This document shows, in pieces, positions 3,670 to 34,953 of a stretch of DNA of 64,000 nt. The position numbers and the translations under genes are program-made. Below the pieces are notes generated by a model that ran no database searches, was not told the origin of the DNA, and saw only the letters and a program-made list of their open reading frames with translations. Where the stretch lies: the NCBI GenBank assembly GCA_026713545.1, contig JAPOOG010000032.1, positions 8,379-72,378 of the forward strand. Reading direction: 5' to 3'. The stretch is from Bryobacterales bacterium (GTDB lineage Bacteria > Acidobacteriota > Terriglobia > Bryobacterales > UBA6623). Position 1 is the first letter of the stretch, and each line of letters begins with the position of its first letter.

Positions 3670-3682
3670 GAAGACAGTAAAG

Positions 3683-7230: not shown

Positions 7231-7260
7231 GTCCTGAAAGCGCCAACGGGCGGCTCCGGC

Positions 7261-8682
7261 CTACGCGATCAACTCCTTGATCAGCTCTCCACCCGTCTGG
7301 CTGAGCTGTTTCTCGCGGCCTTGGGCAAAGTAGGTCAGCCTAGTGTCATCCAGGCCAAGCAGATGCAGCAGAGTGACATGCATGTTCTTGATCGGATGCA
7401 CGGCCTCGACCGCGTTCCTACCGGTCTCGTCGGTGGCTCCGACGATCTTGCCGCGCGGCGCGCCGCCTCCCGCGATCCAGAAAGCCATGGCCGGGGCGTT
7501 GTGATCGCGGCCCCAGACAGCTTGGCCGCCCCGCAGGCCATTATCTGGAGTGCGCCCGAATTCACCCGCCCATACGACAAGGGTCTCTTCCAGCAAGCCG
7601 CTGCGCTTCAAGTCCTTGAGCAGGCCTGCAATGGGCCGGTCGATGGAATCGAGCCGTTTTCCATGGGCTTTCTCGATGTAGTCGTGCGAGTCCCATCCGG
7701 AAACGATCACCTGCACGAACCGGACTCCGCGCTCCACCAACCGGCGGGCCAGCAGGCACCGGCGGCCGATCGAATCCACCTCGGAATTGTCGGAACCGAC
7801 TCCATAGAGCTCGTGCGTGGCCTTCGGCTCCAAGTCGATATTGACGGCCTCCGGCATTTCCGCTTGCATCCGGAACGCCAGCTCGTAGCTTTCGATCCGG
7901 GAAGCCAGTTCGTCATGGTGTGGATGCCGCTGCGAATGGCTGCGATTCAGTCGTCCGATGAAGTCCAGCGTCTTGCGCTGCTGGTGCTCCGTCACGTATT
8001 CCGGCGGCCTCATATCCAGCACCGGCGCGCCTTGCGATCGCAGGGGTGTCCCTTGGTAATGCGCCGGCAGGAACCCGTTCGACCAGTTCCCCGCCCCGCC
8101 CTGCGGAAAGGCCAGATCGGGCAGGACTACGAAGCCGGGCAGGTTCTGGTTCTCGGTGCCCAACCCGTAGGTCACCCAGGCGCCGATCGCCGGGTCTCCG
8201 CCGAAGCGGTTTCCCGTATTGAGGTGATAGAGCGCCGTCGGATGGTTGACGGAGGTCGCCTGCAGGCCCCGGTAAAAACAGATATCGTCCACGCAATCAG
8301 CGAATTGGGCGAGCTTGGCGTTGATCTCGATGCCCATGCGGCCGGCGCGGCGGAATTCGAACGGACTGCGGACGAAGTAGCGCTTGCCCGTGTTCATGCT
8401 GGCTTCGAACTTGTTTTTCTTCTTGACGAACTCGGTCATGTGGAGGTCGACAAGCTTGGGCTTGGGATTGAACGTGTCGATGTGGCTGGGACCGCCCTCC
8501 ATCAGCAGAAAAATGCAGTTCTTGGCCTTGGCCTCATGGTGCGCGCGTCTGGGGGCAAGCACTCCCGCCTGGGCGCGGTCTTTCTGGAGCATCGCCGACA
8601 GCGCGATCGCCCCCAGCCCCATGCCGGAGTGGTACAGGAGTTCGCGGCGGGATGGTCTTGCGGCAAGGACGGGGCGTTTCAT
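7261..8682 (-). CDS. DUF1501 domain protein (sulfatase-fold, Tat signal)
   Basis: 'RRELLYHSGMGLGAIALSAML' signal and a conserved DUF1501-like body ('MEGGPSHIDTFNPKP', 'GGWDSHD'-like 'SGWDSHDY', 'WAGEFGRTP'). Start lies 3 nt from the upstream gene's stop. Confidence 0.85.
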   Translation of the reverse strand: MKRPVLAARPSRRELLYHSGMGLGAIALSAMLQKDRAQAGVLAPRRAHHEAKAKNCIFLLMEGGPSHIDTFNPKPKLVDLHMTEFVKKKNKFEASMNTGKRYFVRSPFEFRRAGRMGIEINAKLAQFADCVDDICFYRGLQATSVNHPTALYHLNTGNRFGGDPAIGAWVTYGLGTENQNLPGFVVLPDLAFPQGGAGNWSNGFLPAHYQGTPLRSQGAPVLDMRPPEYVTEHQQRKTLDFIGRLNRSHSQRHPHHDELASRIESYELAFRMQAEMPEAVNIDLEPKATHELYGVGSDNSEVDSIGRRCLLARRLVERGVRFVQVIVSGWDSHDYIEKAHGKRLDSIDRPIAGLLKDLKRSGLLEETLVVWAGEFGRTPDNGLRGGQAVWGRDHNAPAMAFWIAGGGAPRGKIVGATDETGRNAVEAVHPIKNMHVTLLHLLGLDDTRLTYFAQGREKQLSQTGGELIKELIA

Positions 8683-8684
8683 GA

Positions 8685-11543
8685 TCAGTACACGTATAAG
8701 AATTCGTTGGAGTTGAACAGCGCCAGAGCCAGATCGGCCCAGGCGCGTATGCCGGGCGGCATCTCGCTCGGGTGCGGATTGTGCTCGTAAGGGCCGGTAT
8801 AAGCGGGCTGAACGAATTCGAAGCGTTCTCCGGTCAGCTCGCTTGTGATGGTGTGGACGATGTCCGTCGGCAATCGTCGGGCAGCAGCGGGGTTCCCCTC
8901 AAGGTGCGCCGTCATCTCCGCAACGAACTCTTCCGTCCAATCGCGCTCCTCGCTCGTGGGATCGCGGCCGAATGCCAGTCGAAATGCGCTCTCGACGCGC
9001 ATCCCCGCGGGCAAGGAATCCAGGCGCTGCGCCATGATCAGCGCCATGTCGCGCGACAGATCGGCATTGAGCAGGGCGAACGCCTGGGTCGGCACGGTGG
9101 ATGATTCCCGGCGCTCGCAGGTCAGGTCCGGATTTGCGCCGTTGAACACCTCGATCATGGGGTCCATCATGCTGCGCCGCTGGAAACTGTAAACGGAACG
9201 GCGGTTGCGTCTCCGCCGGGTCGGCTCGGCTTCGTAGACCGGCTGGAGGGTTCCCATCGCATGCCTCGGCTGGTGCGCTACTTCCGGATTGATCTGGGCG
9301 TACGTGCCGGGTCCGCCCGCGAAGTCGCTCAACTCGCCGGCAACCGCCATCATGCTGTCGCGAATTTCCTCGGCTTCCAGCCGGCGGGGTGAGAACCGCG
9401 CCAGGTAGATGTTCTCGGGGTCGAGCTTGTCCACCAACTCACGGTTCTGGTGATCGCTGGCTCGCCGGTACGCCTCCGAATACAGGATCACTCGATGGAC
9501 TGCCTTTACGCTCCAGCCCTGGTCAATGAAGAATACCGCCAGCCAATCCAACAGCTCCGGGTGCGAGGGCTTCTTTCCCATCTTTCCGAAGTTGTTCGCG
9601 TTCGAAGCCAGCCCGCGCCCGAAATGGTATTGCCAGACGCGATTGACCAGAACCCGGCTGGTCAGCGGATTGTCTGGATCCGCGATCCAGCGGGCCAGCG
9701 CGCTTCGCCGTCCGCTCAGGCGGTCCGGGATCTGCGGAGCCGGCAGATCGGAATAGCGCGCCACCGCTTCGAGCACACCTGGTGAAACCTCCTGCCCGGG
9801 CGCCTGGATGTCGCCTCCGGCCAGAACATGGGTTTTTGCTCGGGCATAGTCCCCCGGCTGCAAGTAGCTGTTCCGATACCTCAGGGCCTCCCATTCCTGG
9901 ACATAGCCGTTGCTGACCGTCATGGCCAGAGGCTCGAACCGCAACACGGACAGCTTGTGCATGATCACTCGCTTCCGCAGCAGCTTGAGCAGCTCAGCCT
10001 GCTCACTGCTCAGGTAACGCTGCAGCGTAGTGGTCCGGGCGTTGGCGGCGGCTTCGGGTCCCTTTGCCCGCGCGAGTCGCTCGCGGGCCGCTTCGTGGAG
10101 GTCGTGCATCCGGCGTTCCAGCTCTTCCAGGCGGGTCTGGATAGGCTTGCGGCCCTGGTCGAAGCCTTCCGTCGATTCTGACGGCAGGAACGGCAACGGG
10201 CGCCTCGCGAAAGCCGTCTTCGCGAAGACGGCTTGCATGCGGTAATAGTCCTTGGTGGGGATCGGGTCGAACTTGTGGTCGTGGCAGCGGGCGCAAGCCA
10301 GCGTCACCCCCAGGAACGACTGCCCCACGTGGTGCGTCACGTCGTCCAGGAAGAGCTGCCGGGTCACCGCCGCGACGGCCATGCCGGTATGCTCCCAAGG
10401 CCCCATCCTGAGAAAGCCGGTCGCAAGAATCGCCTCGGGATCGTCCGGGAACAACTCGTCGCCGGCGATCTGCTCGAGCACGAAGCGGTCGTATGGCTTG
10501 TCGCTGTTGAATGCGCGGATGACGTAGTCCCGGTAGCGCCAGGCATTGGGCCGCACGAAGTCATTGGAGTAGCCGGCGGTATCGGCGTAGCGCGTCACGT
10601 CGAGCCAATGACGCCCCCAACGCTCGCCATAGCGGGGAGAGTCCAGCAAGCGCTCGACGACTTTCTTGTAGGCCCCTTCGGATTCGTCGTCCAAAAAAGC
10701 CTGCACCTCTCCCGGAGTCGGAGGCAGGCCCGTCAGGTCGAACGTCAAACGCCGGATGAGCGTTCTCCTGTCGGCTCTCGGAGCCGGTTCGAGTCCCTTC
10801 TCTGCCAGACGGGCCAGGACAAAGCTGTCCACCGGAGTCTGCACGGCAGCCGGGTCTATCCTGCATTTCTCCCCACGCGGCGAGGTGAAGTGCGTGAGAG
10901 GGCCGTCAGGACGAGGCGCGAGCCGCTTGGCGCGCGCAGGCGTACTTGACCGTACGTCGAGCACGGCACGCAAGCGCAACGAAGTCATGGCGGTCGTATC
11001 GCGTGCTTCGGCCGTCGGGTGGGGAGAAAGGCAGGATATCCCTTCGGTTGGGGGCTCGACGCGCTTCACCGGCCGGAACGCCCAGATGTCGCCTTCCTCG
11101 AAATTCCACTTCGCCGTCGAGCGCCCATCCGCATAAGGGGCTCCCGCTGTGATCCATGCGCGGAATGCGTCCCGGGTCTCTTGGGGAAGCTGCTTCTCCG
11201 GCCCTCCGGGTGGCATGGCCAGCTCGCCGGCATGATCTATGGCCGACATCAGCAAGCTGTCGCCGGGCGATCCGCTCTCGATGGCCGGGCCTCGCTGACC
11301 GCCCTTCAGTGCGGCGTCCCGAGTGCGCAGGTCAAGATTGGCGAAGACGTTCCCTTCGCCGTGGCAGCCCAAGCATTGCTGCTTCAGCACCGGCTGGATG
11401 GTGTTGCGGAACAGTTCGGCAGGAGAATCCGCGGCGGCGGCTGAAGTCGCTCCAACCAAGCCGGAAAGGAAAATCAGGCCTGACCGCAGGAAACGAAGTC
11501 CTGACCCCGCACGGACCGCTTTCGATCGGTATCGTCGCCGCAT
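8685..11543 (-). CDS. PSCyt1 / DUF1549 (PSCyt2) / DUF1553 (PSD1) multidomain protein, carrying an in-frame repeat-element insertion
   Basis: Heme-like 'CLGCHG' near the N-terminus, then DUF1549-like 'PVDSFVLARLAEKGLEPAPRADRRTLIRRLTFDLTGLPPT', 'CARCHDHKFDP', and a DUF1553-like C-terminal part. Start set at the ATG at 11543 ('MRRRYRSK...'); the ORF is open to 11615. Confidence 0.85.
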   Translation of the reverse strand: MRRRYRSKAVRAGSGLRFLRSGLIFLSGLVGATSAAAADSPAELFRNTIQPVLKQQCLGCHGEGNVFANLDLRTRDAALKGGQRGPAIESGSPGDSLLMSAIDHAGELAMPPGGPEKQLPQETRDAFRAWITAGAPYADGRSTAKWNFEEGDIWAFRPVKRVEPPTEGISCLSPHPTAEARDTTAMTSLRLRAVLDVRSSTPARAKRLAPRPDGPLTHFTSPRGEKCRIDPAAVQTPVDSFVLARLAEKGLEPAPRADRRTLIRRLTFDLTGLPPTPGEVQAFLDDESEGAYKKVVERLLDSPRYGERWGRHWLDVTRYADTAGYSNDFVRPNAWRYRDYVIRAFNSDKPYDRFVLEQIAGDELFPDDPEAILATGFLRMGPWEHTGMAVAAVTRQLFLDDVTHHVGQSFLGVTLACARCHDHKFDPIPTKDYYRMQAVFAKTAFARRPLPFLPSESTEGFDQGRKPIQTRLEELERRMHDLHEAARERLARAKGPEAAANARTTTLQRYLSSEQAELLKLLRKRVIMHKLSVLRFEPLAMTVSNGYVQEWEALRYRNSYLQPGDYARAKTHVLAGGDIQAPGQEVSPGVLEAVARYSDLPAPQIPDRLSGRRSALARWIADPDNPLTSRVLVNRVWQYHFGRGLASNANNFGKMGKKPSHPELLDWLAVFFIDQGWSVKAVHRVILYSEAYRRASDHQNRELVDKLDPENIYLARFSPRRLEAEEIRDSMMAVAGELSDFAGGPGTYAQINPEVAHQPRHAMGTLQPVYEAEPTRRRRNRRSVYSFQRRSMMDPMIEVFNGANPDLTCERRESSTVPTQAFALLNADLSRDMALIMAQRLDSLPAGMRVESAFRLAFGRDPTSEERDWTEEFVAEMTAHLEGNPAAARRLPTDIVHTITSELTGERFEFVQPAYTGPYEHNPHPSEMPPGIRAWADLALALFNSNEFLYVY
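10860..11036. mobile_element. 177-bp TIR element, copy A, inserted in-frame in the PSCyt/DUF1553 gene
   Basis: Termini are CCTGCATTTCTCCCCAC ... GTGGGGAGAAAGGCAGG and the flanks are TAT/aTAT. Homologous to the copy at 55475-55651 and, partially, to 44489-44666, 30366-30450, 58036-58576 and 61880-61996. Confidence 0.8.
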
Positions 11544-11783
11544 GTGATCCCGAAAAGCAGGGTCAGTCGTCCGATAGCCCGTTGGAGTGCCGAACCGCAG
11601 CAGGCGGACGGCCAAGCACCCTGCAATGGTTGCTTCCCTATGGTAGCGCGAGACATCGGCCGGAAGCTCTCGATGCGGTCGGTGTGGCCCCGACTTTCAC
11701 GTACTCGGCAACCGGGCGCTGGACCGATGGGCGCTGATCGACGCTTGTCAAGCTGTCGTTACAGCATCCTTTGAATGACGCCC

Positions 11784-14279
11784 CTACGGGGCAGCTTCCC
11801 GCTGCCTCGCAACCAGGTTCGCGCGTGCCTCGCCATACTGCCGCTTGATGTCTTCCTTCTCAGCCTCGGTGTTCCAGGGGCCGGTATCCATCGCCTGCTG
11901 AAGCACTTGATCGAGGCGGTCGATGAAGTACTGCGCGTCTTCGTGCGAGCGAATCGGCTTGTCGTCGACGATCACTCTCACCGGCATCGTGGCCGCGAAC
12001 GGGAACGGCCGCCGAATCGGATGGGTCGCGTACTTCGCGCGCGTTCGCACGGCGAACCATCCGCTGCCGTCGATCGTCACCTCTTCGCTCAGGGTCGCGA
12101 TGCGCTTCTCGCCGGTCGGCTCCAGCGTCGCCACGACCTTGTTGTTGAAGAGCAGTTCGATCGATTCGATCGGCATGATCGAGCGCACTTCGGCCTTGGC
12201 TCGCATCGCGTGGGAGCCGGCCGGGAGGTTGATCGTGTCGCCGGGGTCTTTCCCGTTGATCGTGAAGTAGACCAGCGGTCCGGCGCTGACGAAGCTGCGC
12301 CCGGCCTGGAAGTCCTCGATCCACTTGTCGTAGTCAAGTTGTTTCCCGGTCTTCACGTAAACGCGGTTCGAGCCGATGATGTAGCTGCGGTAGAAGTTGC
12401 CGAAAGCGTCCTCGCCGGCTGAAGCCACCACGTCGTAGCCGCAGTTCCAGGCGCGGTAGAGCGGCTGCATCCCGCCGATGGAGTTGACCTCGACGAAGTC
12501 GACCGTCCCGAGCGCCATGTCGGCCGGGAAGTTGCGCCCGGCGCCGTGCGCGTACCCGGCCAGGGCGCCTTGTGCCCGCGCGACCATGTTCGGCACGGTG
12601 TTCGATGGATGCAGGCTCGCCACGACCGTGTTCTGGTAACCCACGTAATCGGGGATCACGTAATGCTCCTTCAGATTCAGGTAGGCGCCGTGCCCCCAGA
12701 AAGGCGGGTGATATTCCTGGTTGTGGTAGAGAATGCGCTCGCTGGTCGACACGGGATCGGGCTTGCCCGTGAAGTGGGCGATGTCGGGAATGCGCTGCTC
12801 CTTGTTGCAGATCAGGTTGTTCAGTACGTGGATGTCTTCCGCGTCCCCCTGGAACATCATCGTCTCGGACGGGTTGTAGTAGACGCCCGAATAGTTCATG
12901 TGGAAATGGTTGCCGCCGTCCCACCAGCCTTTATCGCGCGCCTTGTCGAGGCGCTTGAGGCGAATGGTGACGGACTCGGGGCGGTCCCCGCGAACCATCA
13001 CTTCCTGATCGACGGGCAGGAACTCGAACCCCTTGGCGACACCCAGCGTCGTCTTGCCCGGCGGCAGGTCGATCTCGAACTCGCCGTCCGTGTGGAAGTA
13101 GTGATACTCTTTCTCGTCCATGTGGTCGTACATGATCCAGTCGACGCGCAGCCAGCTTTCCTGGGGCGCGTAGGAACGGCCGTCCGCCGCGTTCAGATGA
13201 ACCCTCGCGGCCGTCACGCCGCCGGTGCCGTCGTCGACGATCTTCACCCGCAGCTTGCCCATCGGGCGCTTGTAGACCAGCTTGTTGGTTTCGACCGGCT
13301 CGAGCTTGCCGCCGAACCAGTGGAACAGCCACAGCGTGGTGTCGCCGGTTTCGTTCGAGATGAACGCGATGCGGTTGCCGTCCGGCGACCAGCGCGGGCT
13401 GGTGCGGTCGAAGTCGCCGTAGGTCAGCGGGAAGTAGTCGCCGCCCTTGGGGGGCATCGCCCAGAGTTGCTGCCACTGCCGCCCGAGGTACGAGCTGTAG
13501 ACCATCTTCGCCCCGTCGGGTGAGATCGTCGGCCGCGCACGCCACGTCGTTTCCTCGTAGTGAAACCGCGTCATCTCGGCGTCGGGCTCGGCCTTCATCC
13601 AATAGAACCCGCCCGAGCCGTGCTTGTTGTGCCGGTTCGTGATGAAGATCAGCTCCTTGCTGTCGGGCGTCCAGGTGGGGTGAAGGTGCACCGCCCACTC
13701 GCCGTAGTAGACCGTCCGCGGAACGAGTTGGAAGTCCTTGGTGATGGCGTACGGCTCGCCGAGCTTGCCGTCGGCGAAATCCATCATCCAGATGTTGTAG
13801 CGTCCCTGGGGCCGGCTGGAAACGAAAGCCAGGCGTTTGCCGTCGGGCGACCACTCCGGCTCGACGTTGATCGATACCCCGGAGGTCAGCGGCGTGACGT
13901 CGCCCGTTTCCAGATCGAGCAGCTTGAGGTGGATCTCTTCGTTGATCTCCGACGTGTACGCGATGTAGCGGCCGCCGGGATGCCACGAGGGCATCGATTC
14001 GTAGGCCGCTCCTTCTGTCAGCTCGTAGGCCGTCGTTTCGCCGACTTTGATCTTCCAGATCGAGCCCTTCATGCCGAAGGCGATTTCCGTGCCGTCCGGG
14101 GACCAGCTCGGGTAGTTCGGGCCGTTCGTGATCTGCGGGAGATAGCACTCGAGGATGTAGGGTTCGCCCGTCATGATCTTCGAGAAGACCCGGCGGCGCC
14201 CCTGGGCGTCGGCGTGGTCGGCGGCCGCCGCGAGAGCGAGGAGAACAAGGGGGATGCAGCGTAGGTGTGAGAGTCTCAT
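11784..14279 (-). CDS. Secreted PD40/TolB-like beta-propeller fused to a PHP/CehA-McbA-like metallohydrolase domain
   Basis: Sec signal 'LVLLALAAAADHADA'. Repeated 'WSPDG' PD40 motifs. His-rich C-terminal part ('GGNHFHMNYSG', 'YHPPFWGHG', 'GYAHG'). Paralog of 30714-33230. Confidence 0.8.
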   Translation of the reverse strand: MRLSHLRCIPLVLLALAAAADHADAQGRRRVFSKIMTGEPYILECYLPQITNGPNYPSWSPDGTEIAFGMKGSIWKIKVGETTAYELTEGAAYESMPSWHPGGRYIAYTSEINEEIHLKLLDLETGDVTPLTSGVSINVEPEWSPDGKRLAFVSSRPQGRYNIWMMDFADGKLGEPYAITKDFQLVPRTVYYGEWAVHLHPTWTPDSKELIFITNRHNKHGSGGFYWMKAEPDAEMTRFHYEETTWRARPTISPDGAKMVYSSYLGRQWQQLWAMPPKGGDYFPLTYGDFDRTSPRWSPDGNRIAFISNETGDTTLWLFHWFGGKLEPVETNKLVYKRPMGKLRVKIVDDGTGGVTAARVHLNAADGRSYAPQESWLRVDWIMYDHMDEKEYHYFHTDGEFEIDLPPGKTTLGVAKGFEFLPVDQEVMVRGDRPESVTIRLKRLDKARDKGWWDGGNHFHMNYSGVYYNPSETMMFQGDAEDIHVLNNLICNKEQRIPDIAHFTGKPDPVSTSERILYHNQEYHPPFWGHGAYLNLKEHYVIPDYVGYQNTVVASLHPSNTVPNMVARAQGALAGYAHGAGRNFPADMALGTVDFVEVNSIGGMQPLYRAWNCGYDVVASAGEDAFGNFYRSYIIGSNRVYVKTGKQLDYDKWIEDFQAGRSFVSAGPLVYFTINGKDPGDTINLPAGSHAMRAKAEVRSIMPIESIELLFNNKVVATLEPTGEKRIATLSEEVTIDGSGWFAVRTRAKYATHPIRRPFPFAATMPVRVIVDDKPIRSHEDAQYFIDRLDQVLQQAMDTGPWNTEAEKEDIKRQYGEARANLVARQREAAP

Positions 14280-14361: not shown

Positions 14362-15456
14362 TCACTCGACTCCATCCTGCAGAACGTGGCATCGGGCAGG
14401 AACGTATCGTTTGGGGATCAGCGTGACGGTTGTCGTCCAATACGTGCCGATCTTGTGTTCGACAATGGAGCCCATCAACATGTGCGCTTCCCACTTGGTC
14501 AATCCGCAATCCTCCCGCAGCCAGCGGATCATGTCGGAGTTCGCTTCGCGCAGGCGCGAATCCGTATCGGCCTCCTTCGAGGGGTTGCTGACGATCGAGG
14601 CGATGTGCGTGTCGTTGACGAGCCTCGGACCGGTGAGGTTCTTGTTCTTGACGACGCGCACGGTGAACTGCACGTCCATTGACGTTTCGATGCCGGCGCC
14701 AAAACCTTCGCCGTCGCCTTGTTGCGCGTGGCCGTCCCCGAGATAGAAGTAGGCGCCCTCGTGAAAGACGGGGAAGTACATCGTGGCGCCTTCGACCACG
14801 TCGTTGTAATCCATGTTGCCGCCGTGGATGGACGTCGGACTGTATGCCCTCGTCGACTGTCCCGGCTCGCCGACGCCGATCGTGCCCAGCATCGGCCGCA
14901 CGGGTAGCTCGATCTTCCAGTCGGAGCGCATCTCGGGCTTCAGCCGGGGGCTCGTCGTGAGCTTCTCGAGATCGATGTCCCAGGGGACGAGGTCGCCGCG
15001 CTCCGGCCGCACTGCGTGCATCCCGAAAATTGGCTCGCGCGCGTTTTCGGTGTCTCCGGGCTTGATGCGGGCATCCGGGATGCCGCTCGTCGTGTAGCCA
15101 TAGTTGCGGTTCACGCGGACCTTGTCGAGATGGACTTCCAGGGCGTCGCCCGGTTCGGCGCCCTCGATATGGAACGGACCGAACAGCGGGTTGCCGCCCT
15201 CGGGTGGAACGTAGGGGTGTTTCAGGTGATGGATGCCCTTTGGGTCGCCCCCGCCCGAGTCCCACGTCTTGGTAATGACCGTGTCACCCGACTTGATGCG
15301 AAGAATCGGTTCCTTCTGGGCGGAAAGGTTGCGGGAGTGGTGATCGGGGTAGATCTCGTAGGTTTCAGCGCCGGCCAGGTGGCCAAAGAGCAGGGAAATC
15401 GCGAAGCAGAGGGGCGCGAGCACGGCTTGCCGCGCCGGCGGGCTGCCGCGGGGCAT
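14362..15456 (-). CDS. Acetamidase/formamidase (FmdA/AmdA) family protein, secreted
   Basis: Signal 'LAPLCFAISLLFGHLAGAE'. Family-like motifs 'GPFHIEGAEPGDALEVH', 'HGGNMDYNDV', 'YLGDGHAQQGDGE'. GGAGG RBS upstream. Confidence 0.85.
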   Translation of the reverse strand: MPRGSPPARQAVLAPLCFAISLLFGHLAGAETYEIYPDHHSRNLSAQKEPILRIKSGDTVITKTWDSGGGDPKGIHHLKHPYVPPEGGNPLFGPFHIEGAEPGDALEVHLDKVRVNRNYGYTTSGIPDARIKPGDTENAREPIFGMHAVRPERGDLVPWDIDLEKLTTSPRLKPEMRSDWKIELPVRPMLGTIGVGEPGQSTRAYSPTSIHGGNMDYNDVVEGATMYFPVFHEGAYFYLGDGHAQQGDGEGFGAGIETSMDVQFTVRVVKNKNLTGPRLVNDTHIASIVSNPSKEADTDSRLREANSDMIRWLREDCGLTKWEAHMLMGSIVEHKIGTYWTTTVTLIPKRYVPARCHVLQDGVE

Positions 15457-16517
15457 TCGTCACCTCCGAATTGATGACAGCGAGGGGGCAGATACTTCTT
15501 CTTCATGAGTGTGGCAATGGAGCCGTAGTAGGTGACGATCTTGTGCTCGACGACGGAGCCGAGCAGCATGTGCGCCTCGGGTGACGTAAGTCCGCATTCG
15601 TCCTGGAGCCAGTTCAGCATGTCGGAGTTCGCGGAACGGACACCGATATCCATGTTGCTGTTGAACTCGGGTTGACTCGCGATCGATACCAGGTACTCGT
15701 CATTGATGAGCCGCGGGATGCGCAGCCTCTTGCCCTTGTGCAGCTTCACCGTGAACTCGACGTCCATCGATGTTTCGACGCCCGCGCCGAAACCCTCGCC
15801 GTCGCCTTGCAGCGCGTGTCCGTCACCGACGTAGAGGTAGGCGCCGGAGGCGAATACGGGTAGCAGCACGGTTGCGCCCTCGACGATGTCGTTGTAATCG
15901 ATGTTGCCGCCGTAATCGCCTGACGGTCCCGACGTGCGCACCTGATACCCGGACGGGGCGGGCGCCACGCCGATGCAGCCCAGCATCGGGCGCGCCGACA
16001 ACTCCATGTTCCAGCCGGATTTGTCTTGCGGCCGCAGCCGCGGCGTGACGGTTTTCTTTTCGAGATCGACGTCCCAGGGAATCAGCGTGGCCCGGCCCGG
16101 CCGCACCCTGCCCATGCCGTAGTTGGGGTCATGGATCTTCTCGCCCGGATTCAGGATGCCCGGCTGCACGGCGAAGGTCGTGTAGGCGTCCTTGCGGTTC
16201 AGGCGGATCTTGTCGATGTGGACTTCCAGCGTATCGCCGTACTCGGCGCCCTCGACATGGAACGGACCCATCAGCGGATTCCCCTTTGCCGGGTACCGGT
16301 ACGGATGCTCGATGTGCCAGACGCCATCGCGGTCTTTGCCGCCCGAATCCCAGGTGCGCGTCTTGACGGTGTCGCCGGATCGAATGCGGGCTACCGGCTC
16401 CCTCTCAGCGGAAAAGACGGGAGAATGATGCTCGGGGTAGATTTCGTGGACGGCGGCGAGTGCGGGCAGAGCCGAGAGGATGAAGAAAGTGAGCGCTCCT
16501 GAGATACGTCGGGGCAT
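15222..16517 (-). CDS. Acetamidase/formamidase family protein (tandem paralog) with an apparent C-terminal read-through extension
   Basis: Start 'MPRRISGALTFFILSALPALAA'. Same motifs as the paralog ('GPFHVEGAEYGDTLEVH', 'YGGNIDYNDI', 'YVGDGHALQGDGE'). No stop at the position where the paralog ends, so the ORF runs 234 nt into the next gene. Confidence 0.75.
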   Translation of the reverse strand: MPRRISGALTFFILSALPALAAVHEIYPEHHSPVFSAEREPVARIRSGDTVKTRTWDSGGKDRDGVWHIEHPYRYPAKGNPLMGPFHVEGAEYGDTLEVHIDKIRLNRKDAYTTFAVQPGILNPGEKIHDPNYGMGRVRPGRATLIPWDVDLEKKTVTPRLRPQDKSGWNMELSARPMLGCIGVAPAPSGYQVRTSGPSGDYGGNIDYNDIVEGATVLLPVFASGAYLYVGDGHALQGDGEGFGAGVETSMDVEFTVKLHKGKRLRIPRLINDEYLVSIASQPEFNSNMDIGVRSANSDMLNWLQDECGLTSPEAHMLLGSVVEHKIVTYYGSIATLMKKKYLPPRCHQFGGDECPAAARRRGKPCSRPSASRFPCSLATWPALKPTRSTPITTPATFPPRRNRFFASSRVTRSLPRRGTRAGATQRASIT

Positions 16518-16611
16518 ATTGAGACTCCTATTCTTCAAGGGAAGATCCAGATAATATTTCCAATGCCAGCACGCATACCGGCTATGGGTTGTACGCTTTG
16601 CGGGGAACATT

Positions 16612-17874
16612 TCAGGTCGCTTTGGCGTGGCTCAACAGCGCTTCCTTGATGCCCCGTGCCGCGAAGATTTCATCGCCGTCGCGCATGCACTGTGTGGTGA
16701 GGCCGGCGCTCGGCCCGTCGCCGCCTCCGCTGATCAGGACGCGCGGCTGCCCTTCGCGGAGCTGCCGGTAGATCTCCCGCCCCGCTACGGGGATAAGGTT
16801 CTGGTCCCAGGAAAAATGCACGTTGTTGTACCCCTGCGTGTTGTCGACCAGCTCCGCCGTACAGCCGGGAACCTCGTTCAGAACATCGGCAATGTACTGC
16901 GCCTTCTTGTTCCAGCCCTCCAGGACCGCGTCATGGTCGAGAGACGCATACCGCCGAACGGCGGCGACGATACCCATGATCTCCTCTTTTCCGACCTTCA
17001 TGCCGCGGCCGATGGACTTGTACGGAGAGTGGTTGAGAGTGGCGGCTTCGATGAGATCCTTGCGGCCGGCCAGGATCCCGGAGGACTGCGGTCCGCGCAG
17101 GCCCTTGCCTCCGCTGATGACCACCAGGTCGGCGCCCGCTTCGGTATAGCGCGTCATGATGTCGGGCGGCGGCAATTCCGATGCGGCGTCGACCAGGACC
17201 GGCACCCCGTGCTGCTTGCCGATCTCGATGAACTCTTCGGGCATCAATGTCCCCGGCGGATTGTTTTTTTGTCGATAGACCCTGGCCAGGACGGCGATCA
17301 TGGCGGTCTTGTCGCTGATCTTGTCGATCATGCCCTGCTTGGTGTCGGCGTCGACGATCTTCATGCCGGCCGCGCGATAGGCCCGGTCGTAGTTGAAGCG
17401 ATGCTGGGTCTGCGTGAGACACTCGACTTTGTCCCAGGTCGGATGCGGCAGGGCTTCGATCTTTTCCTGGTCCGTGCCCGTCAGGCAAGCCGCCGCCCCG
17501 AGCAGCATCGCCGAGAACGAACCGGCGCTCACTACCGCGGCTTCAGCGCCCATGACCCCGGCGATGTAGTCCCCGGCTGCTTTGTTGAGGGCGTTCATGT
17601 CGATGAAGTAGTCGTTGGCTTCCTCCATCGCGCGCATGACTTCGTCCGGCATGCGGGACCCGCCGATGACGGTGTTGTGGCCCTGGCAGCTCAGAAACGG
17701 ACGCAGGCCGAGCCAGCGGTTGTAGATGCTGTCCTGACCCCAGGACATGGGTTCCTTGAGCCGGGAAGCGGCCGTGCCGCAGGCGGCGGCCAGACCGCTC
17801 AGCGCGGCGACCAGCCCGCGGCGGGTGATTTGCAAAGGCGAGAGACTGCTCAATTCCTTGGTGTGAGTGTCCAT
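16612..17874 (-). CDS. SelA-like (L-seryl-tRNA(Sec) selenium transferase / DgaE-like fold) PLP-dependent enzyme with Tat-lipoprotein-type signal
   Basis: 'ITRRGLVAALSGLAAACGT' (RR motif plus lipobox-like AAC). 'VISGGKGLRGPQSSGIL' resembles the SelA PLP-lysine motif. AGGAGG RBS. Confidence 0.75.
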   Translation of the reverse strand: MDTHTKELSSLSPLQITRRGLVAALSGLAAACGTAASRLKEPMSWGQDSIYNRWLGLRPFLSCQGHNTVIGGSRMPDEVMRAMEEANDYFIDMNALNKAAGDYIAGVMGAEAAVVSAGSFSAMLLGAAACLTGTDQEKIEALPHPTWDKVECLTQTQHRFNYDRAYRAAGMKIVDADTKQGMIDKISDKTAMIAVLARVYRQKNNPPGTLMPEEFIEIGKQHGVPVLVDAASELPPPDIMTRYTEAGADLVVISGGKGLRGPQSSGILAGRKDLIEAATLNHSPYKSIGRGMKVGKEEIMGIVAAVRRYASLDHDAVLEGWNKKAQYIADVLNEVPGCTAELVDNTQGYNNVHFSWDQNLIPVAGREIYRQLREGQPRVLISGGGDGPSAGLTTQCMRDGDEIFAARGIKEALLSHAKAT

Positions 17875-17973
17875 GGTGACCTCCTGGTTTCAGTGCCGCC
17901 TGGGCGGCTCGCGCCGCGGCGGCATGCCGTGCCCCTGCATGATGAATGCCGGGATTCGCCTCCGCGGGGGCGT

Positions 17974-19242
17974 TTACGTTGTCCGGCCCTCGGCAATAAA
18001 GAACTCCCGCAACCGGCGCGCGGCGAAGATTTCTTCTCCGTCCCACTGGCACCGCGTGGTCATTCTGCCGCCCTCGTCATCGTTGTAATAGACGATGCGC
18101 GGCTCGCCGGCCTTGAGCTTTTCAGCGGCCTCTTTTCCCGTCAGTGGGATGACCTCGCGGTCCCAGCTCAGGCTGATGTCCTCGAAGCCGTGCGCGTTCA
18201 TGATCTTTTCCGCGTTTAGGCCGGGTACGTCGGCCAACTGATCGATGATGTAGCGCGATTTCTTGTTCCATCCCTCGATCACCGCTTCGTGGTCGAGCGA
18301 AACGTACCGATTCAGTGCCACGACAAAGCCGACGATCTCTTCCTTGCCCACCTTCATGCCGCGTCCGAGAGCGGTGTTCGGGGAGTGGTTGAGAGCGGCG
18401 GCTTCGATGAGGTCCTGGCGGCCCGCCAGGATCCCCGTGGATTGGGGGCCGCGAATCCCCTTGCCGCCGCTGATGACAACCAGGTCGAAGCCCGCCGTGG
18501 TGTAACGGGTCAGCGTATCGACGGGGGGAAGCTCCGACGCCGCGTCGACCACGACCGGCACGCCGGCCTTCTTGCCGAGCTCGAGGAAGTCGTTGGGCAT
18601 CATGACGCCGGGTTTCGGGTTGGGATTGTTATCCCGGCTCGCCAGGCAGGCGAGAAAAGCCGTCTTGCCGCTGATGGCGTTCGCGACCTGCTCTTTGGTC
18701 TCGAAGTCCACCAGCGTGGCCCCGCCGGCCCGGTAGGCGTGGTCGTATCCGAAGCGGTGGGACGTTTGCGTCAGGCACTCGACCCGGTCCCACGTCGGGT
18801 GAGGCAGGGCCTTGACCTTCTCCGGGTCGGTTCCCGAGAGGCATGCCGCCGAAGCCAGCACCATCGCCGAATACGAACCGGCCGTCACCAGCCCCGCCTC
18901 CGCGCCGGTGACCTCGGCGATGCGCCGGCCGGCGGCATCGTTCAACTCGTACATGTCGACGAAGTAGTCGTTCGCCTCGGCGATGGCCCGGATCACTTCG
19001 GGAGGCATGCGCGAGCCGCCGACGATCGTGGTGTGCCCGCGGCAGGTCAGGAACGGGCGGATGCCCAGCAGACGCGTGTAGATGCTGTCGTGTCCCCAGG
19101 CCTTCGAACCTTCCTGCAGCTTCGAGGCGGCCGTGCCGCAGGCCGACGCAAGGCCGGTGAGTGCGGCGATCAGTCCGCGGCGCGTCATTTCCAGAGCCCC
19201 AACTCGGGGCGCATCCGGGTCGGAAATGGTCTTGTTCTTCAC
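17974..19242 (-). CDS. SelA-like PLP-dependent enzyme, tandem paralog (Tat-lipoprotein-type signal)
   Basis: 'MTRRGLIAALTGLASACGT' and 'VISGGKGIRGPQSTGIL'. Start uncertain: GTG at 19242 follows GGAGGAG, with alternatives at 19296 and 19188. Confidence 0.75.
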   Translation of the reverse strand: MKNKTISDPDAPRVGALEMTRRGLIAALTGLASACGTAASKLQEGSKAWGHDSIYTRLLGIRPFLTCRGHTTIVGGSRMPPEVIRAIAEANDYFVDMYELNDAAGRRIAEVTGAEAGLVTAGSYSAMVLASAACLSGTDPEKVKALPHPTWDRVECLTQTSHRFGYDHAYRAGGATLVDFETKEQVANAISGKTAFLACLASRDNNPNPKPGVMMPNDFLELGKKAGVPVVVDAASELPPVDTLTRYTTAGFDLVVISGGKGIRGPQSTGILAGRQDLIEAAALNHSPNTALGRGMKVGKEEIVGFVVALNRYVSLDHEAVIEGWNKKSRYIIDQLADVPGLNAEKIMNAHGFEDISLSWDREVIPLTGKEAAEKLKAGEPRIVYYNDDEGGRMTTRCQWDGEEIFAARRLREFFIAEGRTT

Positions 19243-19357
19243 TCTCTCCTCCTGCGGGCGGCTCCATCGGTGCCCGCGAAGATCATACCAAAACAAACGC
19301 CGGGCGCCCGCGAATTCTCGCGGAACGCCCGGCGAAGTGAAACCGTTATCGAACGCG

Positions 19358-22300
19358 CTAGAAGTTCCAGCGCAGGCCCATCTGCATCTCGCGGCTTTCC
19401 AGCGCGCTCGTGATCCTCCCGAAGTTACCTGACAGGATGTACATCTGCGGGGTCAGGAAGGGCGGCGTGTTCGTCGCGTTGTACATCTCCCACCGCACCT
19501 GGATCGAGTGACGTTCCGAAATGTCGATGTTCTTGAAGATCGAGAAGTCGAAGCCCGTGCGTCCCGGCTCTTCGAGGATGCTGCGCCCCGTGTCGCCGTA
19601 GAGGCCCTTGCCCAGCAGGATCCGGCTCTCGGGAGTGGCGAGCATGAAGGCGCTCGTGTCGAACCAGCGGTCCAGAGTGCGCGCGCCGCCCGAAAGGTTG
19701 CCGTCACCGATTCGGAAGGGGCGCCGGGTGCAGTTCGGGCACCCGTCTCCGGGCGTCGGGTCGACTCTCGACTGGTGCGGGTGAACGGGCAGCCCCGTGG
19801 CCAGCAGGAGAGTGCCATTGACCTGCCATCCGTCGAGGATGTGCTTGGCGGGGCCGGTCAGGTTCTTGGCGAAGGGCAGCTCCCACAGGAACGCGGTCGT
19901 CGCGCGGTGGGTGATGTCGAAATCGCCCCGGCCGCGCTCGGCCGTTCGGCGGTCGTGCGGGTTGTTCGGCCGCTGCGCCCCGCAGCAGGCGCGGAAATCG
20001 AACATCGCCTTCGCCCAGGTGTAGGTCTGCAGGAAGGTGAGTCCGCCGCTGAAGCGCCTCTCCAGCTTGGTCAGCAGGCCATGGTAGCTGCCCGAGGCCG
20101 AGCTGTCGTGAACCTCGATGCTCCCGAACCCGGCCCAGCGCCGAGTCGGGTTGGCGGTGCCGATCGTGTTCGGCAGATACGCGTTGTACTCCGCCGGGAG
20201 GTCGAAGTGGTCCGACTTCGAACCGCTGTAGCCGATTTCGGCAACGAGGTCCCACGGCAGGGACTTCTGGATGTTGATGTTCCACTGATGGACGACACCC
20301 ACCGTTTCTTCGACTTGCGCAGCTCGGATGCGGGCGAGAAAGTTCTCGCTGCTGGCCCGGTCGGCGGTCCCCATCGTGATGATCGGTCTGCGCGGCAGGG
20401 CGGCCTCCTGGATGTTCGCCGTCCCCGGCGGGTTGGCCGCCAGGTGCGGGACGAAGTTGTTGATCATGTTGACGTTGTAGAAGATCCCGTAGCCGGTGCG
20501 GATCACGAAGTCCGTCCCGCCGGTGGGCCTCCAGGCGATCCCGAAACGCGGCGCCCAGTTGTTCTTGCTCACCACGTTCAGGGGAACCCGCGCCGCGCCC
20601 GGCGCCGGGAACAACTGGCCCGAAGCCATGTCGAAGTTCCGCGACTCGCCGCGGTCATCCACGAACGGGGAGTTGTACTCCCAGCGGAGGCCGAGGTTCA
20701 GGGTCAGGTTCGGCGTGACCTTCCACTCGTCCTGGATGTAGGGGTGCAGGCGCCAGTACTCGAAGTCCGGGTACGTGCCGGCGTTGGGCTTGCCCGGAAT
20801 GTTGCCCAGCGTTACCCGTTGCGGATGGTCGAGCAGGAAGTCCGACCAGCCGTGGCCCGAGTGGATGCCGTTGAAGCTGAAGCTGCCGTTGGCGAACTGG
20901 ATCGTGCGCCGGGAGGTTCGGACGAGATTGTATTCCAGGCCGGCCTTGATGCTGTGGTCTCCCTTGATGAACGAGACGCTCTGGAAAATGGAGCGCGACT
21001 CGTCCCAGATCTGGTTGACGTCGGAGGCGCCGATGCCGCAGCAACCGGTCACGCTGATGCTGACGATGCGTGCGTCGTGCGGGTCCTCGGTCTGGCCCGG
21101 GATGCCCAACTCCGTCAGGTTGTTCCATCCGCTGTCGGTGAAACCCGTCCGGCGGAAGTAGAGGTCGCGGTTGTACGAAGCCCGGATTTCGTAGAGCGAC
21201 GTGTTGGAGAGGAAGTGGGTCCATGTCATCGTGGCGTTCTGCTGCTTCTTCGGGTTGAAGAACGTGAAGCGCGGGTCGACGGAAGCCAGGACATTGATGC
21301 TGGCCGGTTGAATCCTCTGGATGCCGTAGCGGCCGAAGATCTTGTTCTTGTCGTTGACGTTCCAGTCGCTCCTCAGGTAGAACTGGTCGTCGTCCAGGTC
21401 GTTCTTCGTGGTGCCCGAGAAGTTGTTCCTGCCGTCGAACTGCGGGTTGCCGAAGTTCGGCTGCGGCCAGAAGGGAATCACCCTTTTCGAGACGGACGAG
21501 ATTCGGCTTGATGGAATGACGTGGTTCGGGAAGGCCCCGCAAGTCGCTGCATCCGCCGGATCCGTGCAGGTGGCGATATCCAGGACCGGACTGCTGGCGA
21601 AGAAAGGCTCGCTCAGATCGCCGTTGCGCATGAGCTGCGTCGGATACGTGCCGAAGCCCTGATTGCTGCGCCGTTCGCTGAGGCTCTCCAGGTTGGCCGT
21701 GAAGAACAGCCGGTTCGTGATGATCGGGCCGCTGATCACGCCGCCGTAGGTGTTGCGCGTCAGTGGCCGCTTCGGAAGATTGGGATTCTCGAAGAAGTTG
21801 CGGGCGTCGAGCTCCTCGGCGCGGAAGAAGTGGAACAGCGTGCCGTGGAATTCGTTCGTGCCGGGCCGGATCGAGGTGATGATCTGCGCGCCCGACTGGG
21901 TCCCGTACTCGGCGTTGTACCAGCCCGCTTCGACGCGGAACTCCTGAATCGCCTCGACCGAGGGCCGCATCCGGACCATGCCGTGGATGCCGGTGCGGAG
22001 CGGAGCGCCGTCGAGAATGATGTTGTTGTTGTGCATCTTCTGGCCTAGCGCCGCGATGCCGTAGCCCGGCCCGAAGCCCGACGTCGTCACGCTGCTGCGC
22101 GGCCCGCGGCTCATGCCGGGTGCGAGCAGCGCCAGCCGGAACAGATTGCGGTCGCCCGGAATCGGCAGCTCGCGAATCTTGGATTCGTCGATGACCGTGC
22201 TGATCGTCGTGTCGTCCGTCTGGACCGACACCGCGTCGGCCTGCACCGTGATCTGCTCGGTGACGGCGCCGATCTGCAGCGTCAGGTTCTGGCGGCGGAC

Positions 22301-22660
22301 CAGGTCGACCTCGAGCCGCACGTCGGTCGCGACGGCGCGGCTGAAGCCTTCCATCGTGGCCGCCACTTCGTAGAGGCCGATGTCCAGCGCAGTGACCGCA
22401 TAGTCGCCGCGCTCGTTGGTCTCGACCGTCCGCTCCTCCTGCGTGCCTACGTTCGTGACGGCAACGCTGGCGCCGGGAATCGCGGCGCCGGATTCGTCGG
22501 TTACCGTTCCAATGATGCTGGAACTGGTGCTTTGCGCAAATGCGGTGCCCGCGCCAAGGGACATCGCCAGAGCCAAGGTAATAACGACAAAGGCGTCATT
22601 CAGCCTCCCCGCTTTCGAAAAAGCCGGGGTATGCCAACAAGAACTTCTCTTCTCGTACAT
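19358..22660 (-). CDS. TonB-dependent outer-membrane receptor with N-terminal carboxypeptidase-regulatory-like domain (1100 aa)
   Basis: 'GTVTDESGAAIPGASVAVTNVGTQEERTVETNERGDYAV' (CarbopepD_reg-like). Long beta-barrel-type sequence ending in '...MQMGLRWNF' (aromatic C-terminus). Confidence 0.9.
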   Translation of the reverse strand: MYEKRSSCWHTPAFSKAGRLNDAFVVITLALAMSLGAGTAFAQSTSSSIIGTVTDESGAAIPGASVAVTNVGTQEERTVETNERGDYAVTALDIGLYEVAATMEGFSRAVATDVRLEVDLVRRQNLTLQIGAVTEQITVQADAVSVQTDDTTISTVIDESKIRELPIPGDRNLFRLALLAPGMSRGPRSSVTTSGFGPGYGIAALGQKMHNNNIILDGAPLRTGIHGMVRMRPSVEAIQEFRVEAGWYNAEYGTQSGAQIITSIRPGTNEFHGTLFHFFRAEELDARNFFENPNLPKRPLTRNTYGGVISGPIITNRLFFTANLESLSERRSNQGFGTYPTQLMRNGDLSEPFFASSPVLDIATCTDPADAATCGAFPNHVIPSSRISSVSKRVIPFWPQPNFGNPQFDGRNNFSGTTKNDLDDDQFYLRSDWNVNDKNKIFGRYGIQRIQPASINVLASVDPRFTFFNPKKQQNATMTWTHFLSNTSLYEIRASYNRDLYFRRTGFTDSGWNNLTELGIPGQTEDPHDARIVSISVTGCCGIGASDVNQIWDESRSIFQSVSFIKGDHSIKAGLEYNLVRTSRRTIQFANGSFSFNGIHSGHGWSDFLLDHPQRVTLGNIPGKPNAGTYPDFEYWRLHPYIQDEWKVTPNLTLNLGLRWEYNSPFVDDRGESRNFDMASGQLFPAPGAARVPLNVVSKNNWAPRFGIAWRPTGGTDFVIRTGYGIFYNVNMINNFVPHLAANPPGTANIQEAALPRRPIITMGTADRASSENFLARIRAAQVEETVGVVHQWNINIQKSLPWDLVAEIGYSGSKSDHFDLPAEYNAYLPNTIGTANPTRRWAGFGSIEVHDSSASGSYHGLLTKLERRFSGGLTFLQTYTWAKAMFDFRACCGAQRPNNPHDRRTAERGRGDFDITHRATTAFLWELPFAKNLTGPAKHILDGWQVNGTLLLATGLPVHPHQSRVDPTPGDGCPNCTRRPFRIGDGNLSGGARTLDRWFDTSAFMLATPESRILLGKGLYGDTGRSILEEPGRTGFDFSIFKNIDISERHSIQVRWEMYNATNTPPFLTPQMYILSGNFGRITSALESREMQMGLRWNF

Positions 22661-25938: not shown

Positions 25939-25963
25939 ACTGAAGCCCTTCAGTCTTTTTTTC
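25939..25963 (+). terminator. Terminator-like hairpin + T-run carried on a repeat module
   Basis: ACTGAAG-CCC-CTTCAGT followed by CTTTTTTT. The same module occurs inverted at 54541-54566. Confidence 0.45.
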
Positions 25964-27775: not shown

Positions 27776-27787
27776 AAAGGAGCGGCC

Positions 27788-29056: not shown

Positions 29057-29092
29057 ATGAAATGCGGCCGACTCGATCGATGGAGAAACCCT

Positions 29093-34941: not shown

Positions 34942-34953
34942 AGGACCACTGCC

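Follow-up and report, generated by a model that had tools for sequence, protein, structure and literature searches.

Exported SelA-like enzymes and secreted FmdA_AmdA-family amidases next to a putative TonB-dependent receptor: a candidate periplasmic breakdown operon of marine Bryobacterales

The stretch of DNA analysed here, referred to as the window, comprises 64,000 nucleotides from a Bryobacterales bacterium (Acidobacteriota; assembly GCA_026713545.1, contig JAPOOG010000032.1, positions 8,379 to 72,378 of the forward strand). On its minus strand, two pyridoxal 5'-phosphate (PLP) enzymes of the SelA/DgaE fold (SelA-like 1 and SelA-like 2) are encoded together with two secreted amidases of the FmdA_AmdA family (Fmd1 and Fmd2), directly downstream of a gene for a putative TonB-dependent receptor. 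Folds and signals, the catalytic lysine and the conservation of the linkage were observed; the four genes probably supply the central enzymes of a breakdown operon that acts in the periplasm of marine Bryobacterales and is fed by the receptor. The general mechanism that we infer, in its order as in its chemistry, would on balance be removal of an acyl group in the periplasm, after which a non-phosphorylated β-hydroxy-α-amino acid would undergo PLP-dependent α,β-elimination and deamination. That the substrate is an amino-sugar acid is proposed tentatively.

The minus strand from 11.8 to 22.7 kb is a tight co-directional row: receptor, SelA-like 1, SelA-like 2, Fmd1, Fmd2 and a gene for a PD40/CehA protein. 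The four open reading frames (ORFs) of the original prediction, two for amidases and two for SelA-like proteins, were all recovered in place on this strand. The 1100-amino-acid (aa) receptor that it had set ahead of them lies at 19358..22660 (minus strand) and is an outer-membrane barrel of the TonB-dependent-receptor type (PF25183 OMP_b-brl_4, 661 bits; PF00593, 30 bits) with an N-terminal CarboxypepD_reg domain (PF13620, 66 bits); no match to Plug (PF07715) was obtained in the receptor at E≤0.01. SelA-like 1, a DgaE-family-like PLP enzyme of 422 aa, was assigned to 17974..19242, with a likely GTG start at 19242 (AGGAGG 5 nt upstream) in a full ORF of 17974-19296; the alternative start, ATG 19188, retains the signal too. 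SelA-like 2 (16612..17874, 420 aa) starts at an ATG with AGGAGG upstream. Fmd1 was assigned to 15222..16517 in a full ORF of 15222-16610, with its likely start at ATG 16517 after AGGAG, from which it reads MPRRISGALTFFILSALPALAAVHEIY. Fmd2 (14362..15456, 364 aa) starts at an ATG after GGAGG, and is followed by the gene for a secreted PD40 β-propeller protein (11784..14279, 831 aa; PF07676, 115 bits) with a CehA/McbA-family metallohydrolase domain (NF038032, 148 bits against a cutoff of 80). The SelA-like paralogues are 59% identical and the Fmd paralogues 55%. The closest matches in named genomes were Bryobacterales metagenome-assembled genomes (MAGs), at 84-87% identity; a 100% identical match, recorded for Fmd2, was found on the metagenome contig L087, and an exact-sequence look-up of SelA-like 2 returned no contig on record. 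An Rfam scan of the whole window gave no match, and hence no riboswitch clue to the ligand; promoter and terminator scans remained at chance level.

Both SelA-like proteins carry a twin-arginine translocation (Tat) signal that ends in a lipobox; Tat dependence and lipidation are predicted from it. The signals consist of an n-region of about 17-20 residues, the motif T-R-R-G-L-[VI], a moderately hydrophobic h-region and the ending L-A-[AS]-A-C. The strings quoted in the original prediction, signals TRRGLVAALSGLAAACGTAAS and TRRGLIAALTGLASACGTAAS and lysine motifs SGGKGLRGPQSSG and SGGKGIRGPQSTG, were all found; the SelA-like 1 signal reads TRRGLIAALTGLASAC. The Tat motifs are TRRGLV and TRRGLI, the mean Kyte-Doolittle hydropathy of the h-regions is 2.0-2.2, and the lipoboxes L-A-A-A-C and L-A-S-A-C stand at their ends. 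Of the 106 N-terminally extended homologues in the fetched loci, 103 have an RR-x-hydrophobic motif upstream of the mature domain, and conservation of R18 and R19 reaches at least 90% in an alignment of 20 sequences (A1). The lipobox cysteine is present in all orthologues of the window clade, yet in only about 20 of 107 family members. A short Sec-type N-terminus, ending before a conserved E/V-T/V-H-E-I-Y-P, was seen in 16/16 aligned FmdA-like proteins; in Fmd1 the signal reads ...ALAA|VHEIY. The original prediction had named start-codon reassignment as a way in which the SelA-like signals might vanish. They survive it: the twin arginines recur across the homologues and strong ribosome-binding sites precede the signal-containing starts, so that, with the lipobox of the clade and the Sec N-termini of the amidases, the objection of a start-codon artefact fails.

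The SelA-like proteins gave full-length matches to TIGR01437, the DgaE family (162 bits for SelA-like 2 and 147 bits for SelA-like 1, cutoff 385). NF047797 scored 126 and 140 bits (cutoff 600), TIGR00474 (SelA) 28 and 24 bits (cutoff 268), and PF03841 19-25 bits in a partial match of about 100 residues around the lysine. Weak matches to cysteine desulfurase, EgtE and SepCysS models were also obtained, and among the curated NCBIfam and Pfam models there was none that the SelA-like proteins pass. Against the PDB, a profile of the clade matched 8t7j (1.6e-56) and DgaE (7lc0, 7e-45) at full length, and SelA-like 2 matched the same entries at 2.8e-40 and 3e-26, respectively; 8t7j is an uncharacterised, cytoplasmic "putative selenocysteine synthase". 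The fold and the PLP lysine of the original "SelA/DgaE fold" label thus stand, but the relationship is distant, with scores far under the TIGR01437 and TIGR00474 cutoffs.

Active-site residues were compared by sequence alignment of the 106 exported homologues to 8t7j and 7lc0, as follows. The PLP lysine, K213 of DgaE, is lysine in 106/106 homologues, in both window proteins and in 8t7j; it is K257 in SelA-like 2 and lies inside SGGKGIRGPQS in SelA-like 1. H112 and Y116 of the conserved core are mostly kept, and both are present in the window proteins and 8t7j. The His pair H162/H163, strictly conserved in DGL, the ammonia-lyase that acts on D-glucosaminate-6-phosphate, where H163 protonates C3 and so prevents enamine release (PMC9529869), is His in 12 and 6 of the 106, respectively (V/Y in SelA-like 2, R/D in SelA-like 1, R/T in 8t7j). 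The phosphate-binding residues Arg301, Arg332 and Arg346 (PMC9529869), which hold the 6-phosphate, are Arg in 9, 11 and 14 of the 106 (N/S/Q in SelA-like 2, D/Y/R in SelA-like 1, R/R/R in 8t7j); the position of Arg346 is therefore Gln in SelA-like 2 and Arg in SelA-like 1. This lost arginine pattern would fit a non-phosphorylated substrate, which would be sensible outside the cytoplasm. Because of the scores and the lost residues, the proteins were classed as members of the fold and superfamily, neither DgaE orthologues nor SelA. DgaE orthology was rejected on scores under half the cutoff and on the absence of the His pair and the Arg cluster; SelA orthology was rejected on a profile score under the cutoff, a match of only about 100 residues as against the full-length, decamer-forming architecture of SelA, the lack of a tRNA-binding N-terminal domain and an N-terminus that is a Tat signal. 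SelA, the L-seryl-tRNA(Sec) selenium transferase, shares the core PLP fold around the lysine, but has the tRNA-binding N-terminal domain that the window proteins lack, and an exported protein cannot meet tRNA; the label "seryl-tRNA selenium transferase" (the JGI name) is a mis-annotation.

Relatives of the SelA-like proteins are carried by at least 584 species genomes, and the broader family forms at least 1243 clusters at 50% identity (E≤1e-30). Among the top 150 representatives, about one quarter are of the exported type and about two thirds are proteins of about 375 aa without a signal; on these N-termini, export defines the clade, not the family. The exported SelA/DgaE-fold clade was found in at least five phyla: Acidobacteriota, Gemmatimonadota, Planctomycetota, Bacteroidota and Latescibacterota. 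One family member, P0342 (1468 aa), continues from its SelA-like domain into DUF6025 and an AMP-binding adenylation domain, a fusion which suggests a biosynthetic use of the fold.

Fmd1 and Fmd2 belong to the superfamily PF03069 (79 and 90 bits, gathering threshold 27), and share the motif GDGHAxQGDGE with PDB 3tkk and 5ubu; the motif is invariant in the FmdA-like alignment. The name "formamidase" in the original prediction holds at the level of the family, but not as a label of function: the formamidase equivalog NF045496 gave 54 and 45 bits, far under its cutoff of 500, and formamidase orthology was rejected on this score. Like the structurally determined members of the family (PDB 3tkk, 5ubu, 2ii1, 2f4l, 3b9t, 2wkn) in Pfam assignment and motif, the Fmd proteins have a precedent for export in 3b9t, deposited as a "Twin-arginine translocation pathway signal protein"; they differ in forming a separate subfamily, Sec-exported and about 340 aa long, whose genes are linked to those for TonB receptors, PD40/CehA, RidA and SelA-like proteins. 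The conserved domain of Fmd1 ends near 15460, with no stop at the usual C-terminus of the family (…PPRCHQFGGDE); some 78 further codons, rich in Arg, Pro and Ser, overlap the first approximately 235 nt of Fmd2 in a different frame (15222-15460). The extended frame recurs in orthologous loci from other samples (L001, L002, L092, L093 and L154), and is therefore not an assembly error. In two marine loci that are otherwise syntenic (L090, 6800-7144; L091, 8001-8345), most of Fmd1 is missing and a fragment of its C-terminal part is left. These loci hold two SelA-like genes and one Fmd gene, so the 2+2 arrangement is not obligatory.

Conservation of the neighbourhood was assessed in two samples. 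The SelA-like-side sample comprised the 80 best loci from species-representative genomes (58 well-flanked); the FmdA-side sample comprised 79 metagenome loci and six look-up loci (L081-L086), 85 in all and many too short to judge, of which 24 FmdA-centred metagenome loci were well-flanked (2 kb or more on each side). Of these 24 loci, 13 have a SelA-like gene within 3 kb of FmdA; of the 85, 29 contain one. The linkage spans two SelA-like clades that are mutually just 34-37% identical, so the co-occurrence in other genomes on which the original prediction had staked its claim was borne out. In the marine clade of the window, the order receptor, SelA-like 1, SelA-like 2, Fmd1, Fmd2, PD40/CehA recurs (L001, L002, L088, L154, L156 and others), with SelA-like 1 orthologues 68-91% identical in the syntenic loci and a receptor orthologue in the same position in L001, L002, L088, L090, L091 and L156. 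The PD40/CehA gene directly follows FmdA in L001, L002, L083, L088-L093, L109, L125 and L137. In the soil clade the order is RidA(Tat)-FmdA(Sec)-SelA-like(Tat), behind which there is often another, divergent SelA-like gene with two PRK09237 amidohydrolases (L100, L101, L105, L106, L114, L116, L121), and a Tat-signal gene of the PIG-L (N-acetylglucosamine de-N-acetylase) family joins these operons. The soil-clade SelA-like proteins encoded after RidA-FmdA carry an additional domain of about 110 aa at the C-terminus (…WELTINF…GEYGNGNWSA…), which gave no Pfam match (L101, 7131-8768; L116, 9055-10623; L136, 6482-8035; P0286; P0297).

Around the 58 well-flanked SelA-like genes, other partners were recorded: 17 loci have an exported RidA, in most cases directly upstream and in the same orientation, 16 a PRK09237 amidohydrolase/deacetylase with a signal (448 bits, cutoff 371), 14 a TonB receptor and seven an RraA-like aldolase. 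The conserved unit is an amide or acyl hydrolase with an exported PLP enzyme, often with RidA, and FmdA is one of three interchangeable hydrolase families. The original idea that two families work together was upheld for the recurrent pairing of amide hydrolase and exported PLP enzyme, but FmdA is not the specifically conserved partner. That hydrolase and SelA-like protein act as a pair is indicated by L067 (SelA-like, SelA-like, amidohydrolase, amidohydrolase: a 2+2 layout with an unrelated hydrolase fold), by P0332 (762 aa), a natural fusion of a PRK09237-type amidohydrolase and a SelA-like domain without a signal, and by PIG-L in the soil operons. In Bacteroidota, the module comprises a PQQ (pyrroloquinoline quinone) glucose/sorbosone-type dehydrogenase fused to cytochrome c, CBM9, an SMP30 lactonase, a PRK09237 amidohydrolase, an SBF transporter, an RraA-like aldolase, RidA, the SelA-like protein and YjgF; signal-type N-termini were seen on six of the nine (amidohydrolase, lactonase, RraA-like aldolase, RidA, SelA-like and YjgF). 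In a Bryobacteraceae MAG (L055), a Tat-signal dehydratase of the enolase superfamily (MR_MLE) adjoins the SelA-like gene. The dehydratase gene (7781-9085) and that for a Tat-signal protein of 325 aa with no Pfam match (6807-7784) lie directly upstream of the SelA-like gene; an exported enolase-superfamily enzyme is unusual in itself.

The proposed pathway would run as follows. The receptor would import an N-acylated or amidated amino compound, from which the Sec-exported Fmd1 and Fmd2, possibly helped by the PD40/CehA hydrolase, would strip the acyl or amide group and thereby expose an α-amino acid whose β-carbon bears a leaving group. SelA-like 1 and SelA-like 2, which would bind PLP in the cytoplasm, be exported folded through Tat and be tethered by a lipid anchor, would then perform a DgaE-type α,β-elimination to yield ammonia and a 2-keto-3-deoxy acid, and the keto-deoxy acid would be taken up. 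Such a lyase would regenerate its own PLP at each turnover and need no periplasmic amino acceptor; an eliminating lyase without co-substrate would thus suit a compartment that lacks amino acceptors. Loss of His163 would allow release of an enamine or imine, the substrate of RidA, which would explain a dedicated exported RidA. The two ancient paralogue pairs would serve two stereo- or acyl-variants of the substrate; at the position of Arg346, kept in SelA-like 1 and DgaE, SelA-like 2 has Gln. The likeliest class of substrate would be non-phosphorylated 2-amino-2-deoxy-aldonates (D-glucosaminate/galactosaminate type) and their N-acetyl forms. Chemistry of the same kind as in DgaE is suggested by the loss of His163, the self-regeneration of PLP, the Bacteroidota module and the L055 dehydratase. 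The Bacteroidota module could be read as a sequence of aldose, lactone, aldonate, de-N-acylation, deamination, aldol cleavage and uptake of a small acid, and in the window AGE-like epimerase (N-acylglucosamine-2-epimerase-family), aldonate-dehydratase-like and DHDPS-family (dihydrodipicolinate synthase) genes lie nearby. Possible, though doubtful, is the extension to a widespread periplasmic pathway in five phyla, in which amino-sugar acids would be de-N-acylated and deaminated by Tat-exported DgaE-like lyases with an exported RidA. Its substrates might, just as tentatively, be N-acetylglucosaminic acid (GlcNAc1A) ends, for example, from oxidative cleavage of chitin or other glycans, or products of periplasmic sugar dehydrogenases.

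Several known systems bear on this pathway. DgaE catalyses a PLP-dependent α,β-elimination of an amino-sugar acid to a 2-keto-3-deoxy acid and ammonia (PMC9529869); the SelA-like proteins agree with it in the full-length fold (7e-45), the position of the PLP lysine and, largely, H112/Y116. An aldolase commonly follows in the DgaE pathway, DgaF in Salmonella, as the RraA-like aldolase does in the Bacteroidota SelA-like loci. DgaE is cytoplasmic and linked to the phosphotransferase system (PTS), whereas the window proteins are exported, by their Tat signal and lipobox, and have amide hydrolases as partners; homologues elsewhere occur with RidA. In the Ong pathway of Pseudoalteromonas, TonB receptors import oxidised chito-oligosaccharides, OngB deacetylates GlcNAc1A, the PLP enzyme OngC deaminates the product to 2-keto-3-deoxygluconate (KDG), and the RidA protein OngD is genetically essential (PMC9537276). 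The logic of TonB import, N-deacetylation, PLP-dependent deamination to a 2-keto-3-deoxy acid and RidA is the same as that proposed here. The enzymes behind the OngOT receptors are non-homologous: OngB is an amidohydrolase of the D-aminoacylase type, and OngC, annotated as a putative D-amino acid deaminase, is a PLP enzyme of another kind than the SelA-like proteins. Moreover, deacetylation and deamination in the Ong pathway are cytoplasmic, after SSS-type (sodium:solute symporter) uptake, whereas all steps are predicted to be periplasmic here. Pairing of a hydrolase with a SelA-like protein is also seen among the cog3964/PRK09237/EF_0837 amidohydrolases, both adjoining exported SelA-like genes and fused; in the window an unrelated fold, FmdA_AmdA, takes the place of that hydrolase, and all members of the set have export signals. 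Ornelas and colleagues are said to have reported in 2013 a selA-related context of cytoplasmic cog3964 enzymes, with the natural substrate unknown. For an exported version, the original prediction had seen no obvious known substrate. Literature searches found no described exported SelA/DgaE-fold member, but exported PLP enzymes in general have precedents: PvdN and PtaA of pseudomonads are Tat-exported periplasmic PLP enzymes that are loaded with cofactor in the cytoplasm and cross the membrane folded (PMC6206403), a precedent for SelA-like 1 and SelA-like 2. PvdN and PtaA have a class-V/transaminase fold, act in siderophore tailoring and are not linked to amidases, RidA or TonB receptors.

A number of observations weigh against the proposed pathway. 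Characterised FmdA_AmdA enzymes act on small amides and lactams. The catalytic His pair of DgaE is absent, so that the chemistry may differ. Structure prediction, which the original prediction had suggested as a check, yielded an AlphaFold2 model of SelA-like 2 (from the 20-sequence alignment), but with a pLDDT (predicted local distance difference test) of 57.5 and a pTM (predicted template modelling score) of 0.42 it was unusable for a fold search and too poor for an active-site reading. No RidA homologue was found in the 64-kb window, nor any RraA-like, PRK09237, sugar dehydrogenase, lactonase or PIG-L gene. An FmdA partner was present in only 3 of the 58 SelA-like-centred genome loci, namely two close Bryobacterales MAGs and a weak case (L039); the notion, drawn from these three loci, that the FmdA link is confined to close relatives was rejected after the FmdA-centred metagenome scan. 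A plus-strand operon of the window, with four class-V PLP genes and a γ-glutamyltranspeptidase (both described below), points to peptides or thiol conjugates no less than to sugars. Finally, a transporter linked to FmdA binds L-amino-acid amides (bioRxiv 10.1101/2024.02.22.581678).

With this last observation agrees an unlikely but serious alternative, in which the same logic serves other substrates, amino-acid amides or peptide-derived hydroxy or D-amino acids, for scavenging of nitrogen from dissolved organic nitrogen. The FmdA-like proteins would turn, for example, serinamide or threoninamide into the amino acid and NH3, and the SelA-like proteins, as enzymes of the Ser/Thr-dehydratase type, would form 2-aminoacrylate or 2-aminocrotonate, to be quenched by RidA. 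The ABC transporter binding protein linked to FmdA_AmdA operons is specific for L-amino-acid amides (bioRxiv 10.1101/2024.02.22.581678), RidA is the classical partner of Ser/Thr dehydratases (PMC5636819), and peptidase-type neighbours (M20, S9, M19 and DUF885) occur near FmdA/SelA-like genes, as does the γ-glutamyltranspeptidase in the window. DgaE, the sole characterised PLP relative, acts however on an amino-sugar acid, the Bacteroidota gene sits among a sugar dehydrogenase, lactonase, CBM9 and aldolase, and the deacetylase-type partners (PIG-L and PRK09237) remove N-acyl groups, not C-terminal amides.

Improbable, though still to be reckoned with, is another periplasmic PLP reaction (C-S or C-Se β-lyase, desulfurase, transamination or decarboxylation), with the SelA-like proteins as part of a larger exported PLP enzyme set in a genome island and the amidases loosely related to it. 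The non-conservation of the His pair and of the substrate-binding arginines would agree with this, as would the weak matches to the cysteine desulfurase, EgtE and SepCysS models and the four Tat/lipobox class-V (SufS/PvdN-like) genes 2-10 kb away; exported PvdN is of the decarboxylase type and PtaA is a transaminase (PMC6206403), and a C-S β-lyase would likewise release an enamine. Against it, the best full-length similarity is to the DgaE family, the tight and recurrent RidA adjacency fits an enamine-releasing elimination rather than a transamination, and a transaminase would need a periplasmic amino acceptor. That the adjacency is incidental and the signals are start-codon artefacts of ordinary cytoplasmic enzymes is very improbable and largely refuted: cytoplasmic relatives do exist among the representatives without a signal, and an internal methionine of SelA-like 2, Met43, immediately precedes its conserved domain, but SelA-like 1 has no Met at the equivalent position, RR is kept in 103/106 homologues and between paralogues only 59% identical, ribosome-binding sites precede the long starts, and the linkage is met with again in divergent clades and in a fusion protein.

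The Dga and Ong pathways already provide precedents for the chemistry and logic of the proposed pathway, as PvdN and PtaA do for export of PLP enzymes by Tat. Literature searches returned no account of an exported protein with the SelA/DgaE fold or of a RidA system in the periplasm; searches for literature on 8T7J, and on periplasmic PLP, Tat and RidA combined, found nothing relevant. In the libraries and papers searched, there was no description of an exported SelA/DgaE-fold clade in at least five phyla, of its systematic coupling to an exported RidA and three alternative amide-hydrolase families, or of a TonB-receptor-linked FmdA_AmdA subfamily. PLP enzymes with a known role in the periplasm are very few. 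The exported clade is large, and abundant among Acidobacteriota of soil and sea, a group in which most of the many TonB-receptor operons still lack an explanation. The analysis corrects the common "seryl-tRNA selenium transferase" mis-annotation and offers testable enzymes, a candidate deacetylase/lyase pair for non-phosphorylated glucosaminate-type acids. If amino-sugar acids were the substrates, the operon would tie oxidative polysaccharide breakdown to extracytoplasmic release of nitrogen, and a widespread pathway of this kind would be the first periplasmic RidA/PLP-lyase system, with ammonium and keto acids freed before uptake.

Downstream of the PD40/CehA gene, the minus strand continues with a PSCyt/DUF1549/DUF1553 gene (8685-11615), a DUF1501 gene (7261-8682) and a gene for a Tat-signal N-acylglucosamine-2-epimerase-family (AGE-like) protein (5857-7230), each recognised by Pfam/NCBIfam matches and the last also by its Tat-type N-terminus. 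Judged by the short intergenic gaps in their coordinates, these genes (5857..11615) possibly belong to the same transcription unit as the row upstream. Pairs of PSCyt/DUF1549/DUF1553 and DUF1501 genes also adjoin FmdA-like genes in the unrelated loci L085, L086, L110 and L131, as in the window (7261-11615). AGE enzymes are normally cytoplasmic. Divergent from the epimerase gene, on the plus strand (3458-5814), are a DHDPS-family gene (KDG-aldolase/5-dehydro-4-deoxyglucarate-dehydratase-like) and an aldonate-dehydratase-like gene of the enolase superfamily; the window has three enolase-superfamily genes, the others being at 634-1644 and 50435-51358. The only amidohydrolase match in the window, a weak one, is at 60137-60361.

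On the plus strand, four tandem genes of the class-V aminotransferase fold (SufS/cysteine-desulfurase-like and PvdN-like) occupy 24258-25571, 26446-27687, 27656-29056 and 29057-30352. At least three of the four (24258-30352) carry a twin-arginine signal ending in a lipobox Cys, and counting the SelA-like pair, six PLP-fold enzymes lie within 14 kb, at least five of them exported by signal. Because three of the four share this RR-plus-Cys design, the organism seems to make a practice of targeting PLP enzymes as Tat lipoproteins. Relatives of this class-V PLP family were also found near SelA-like or FmdA genes in L005, L109, L126, L127 and L156. Further along the plus strand (within 30714-36423) are a second PD40-propeller/CehA-McbA paralogue (838 aa, with 192 bits for its CehA domain), a γ-glutamyltranspeptidase with a Tat signal (33262-34941) and, after the latter, a secreted protein of 489 aa with no family match. 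In the gap between the divergent operons, a short minus-strand ORF (23284-23526) resembles, by eye, the C-terminal part of a PIN/VapC toxin.

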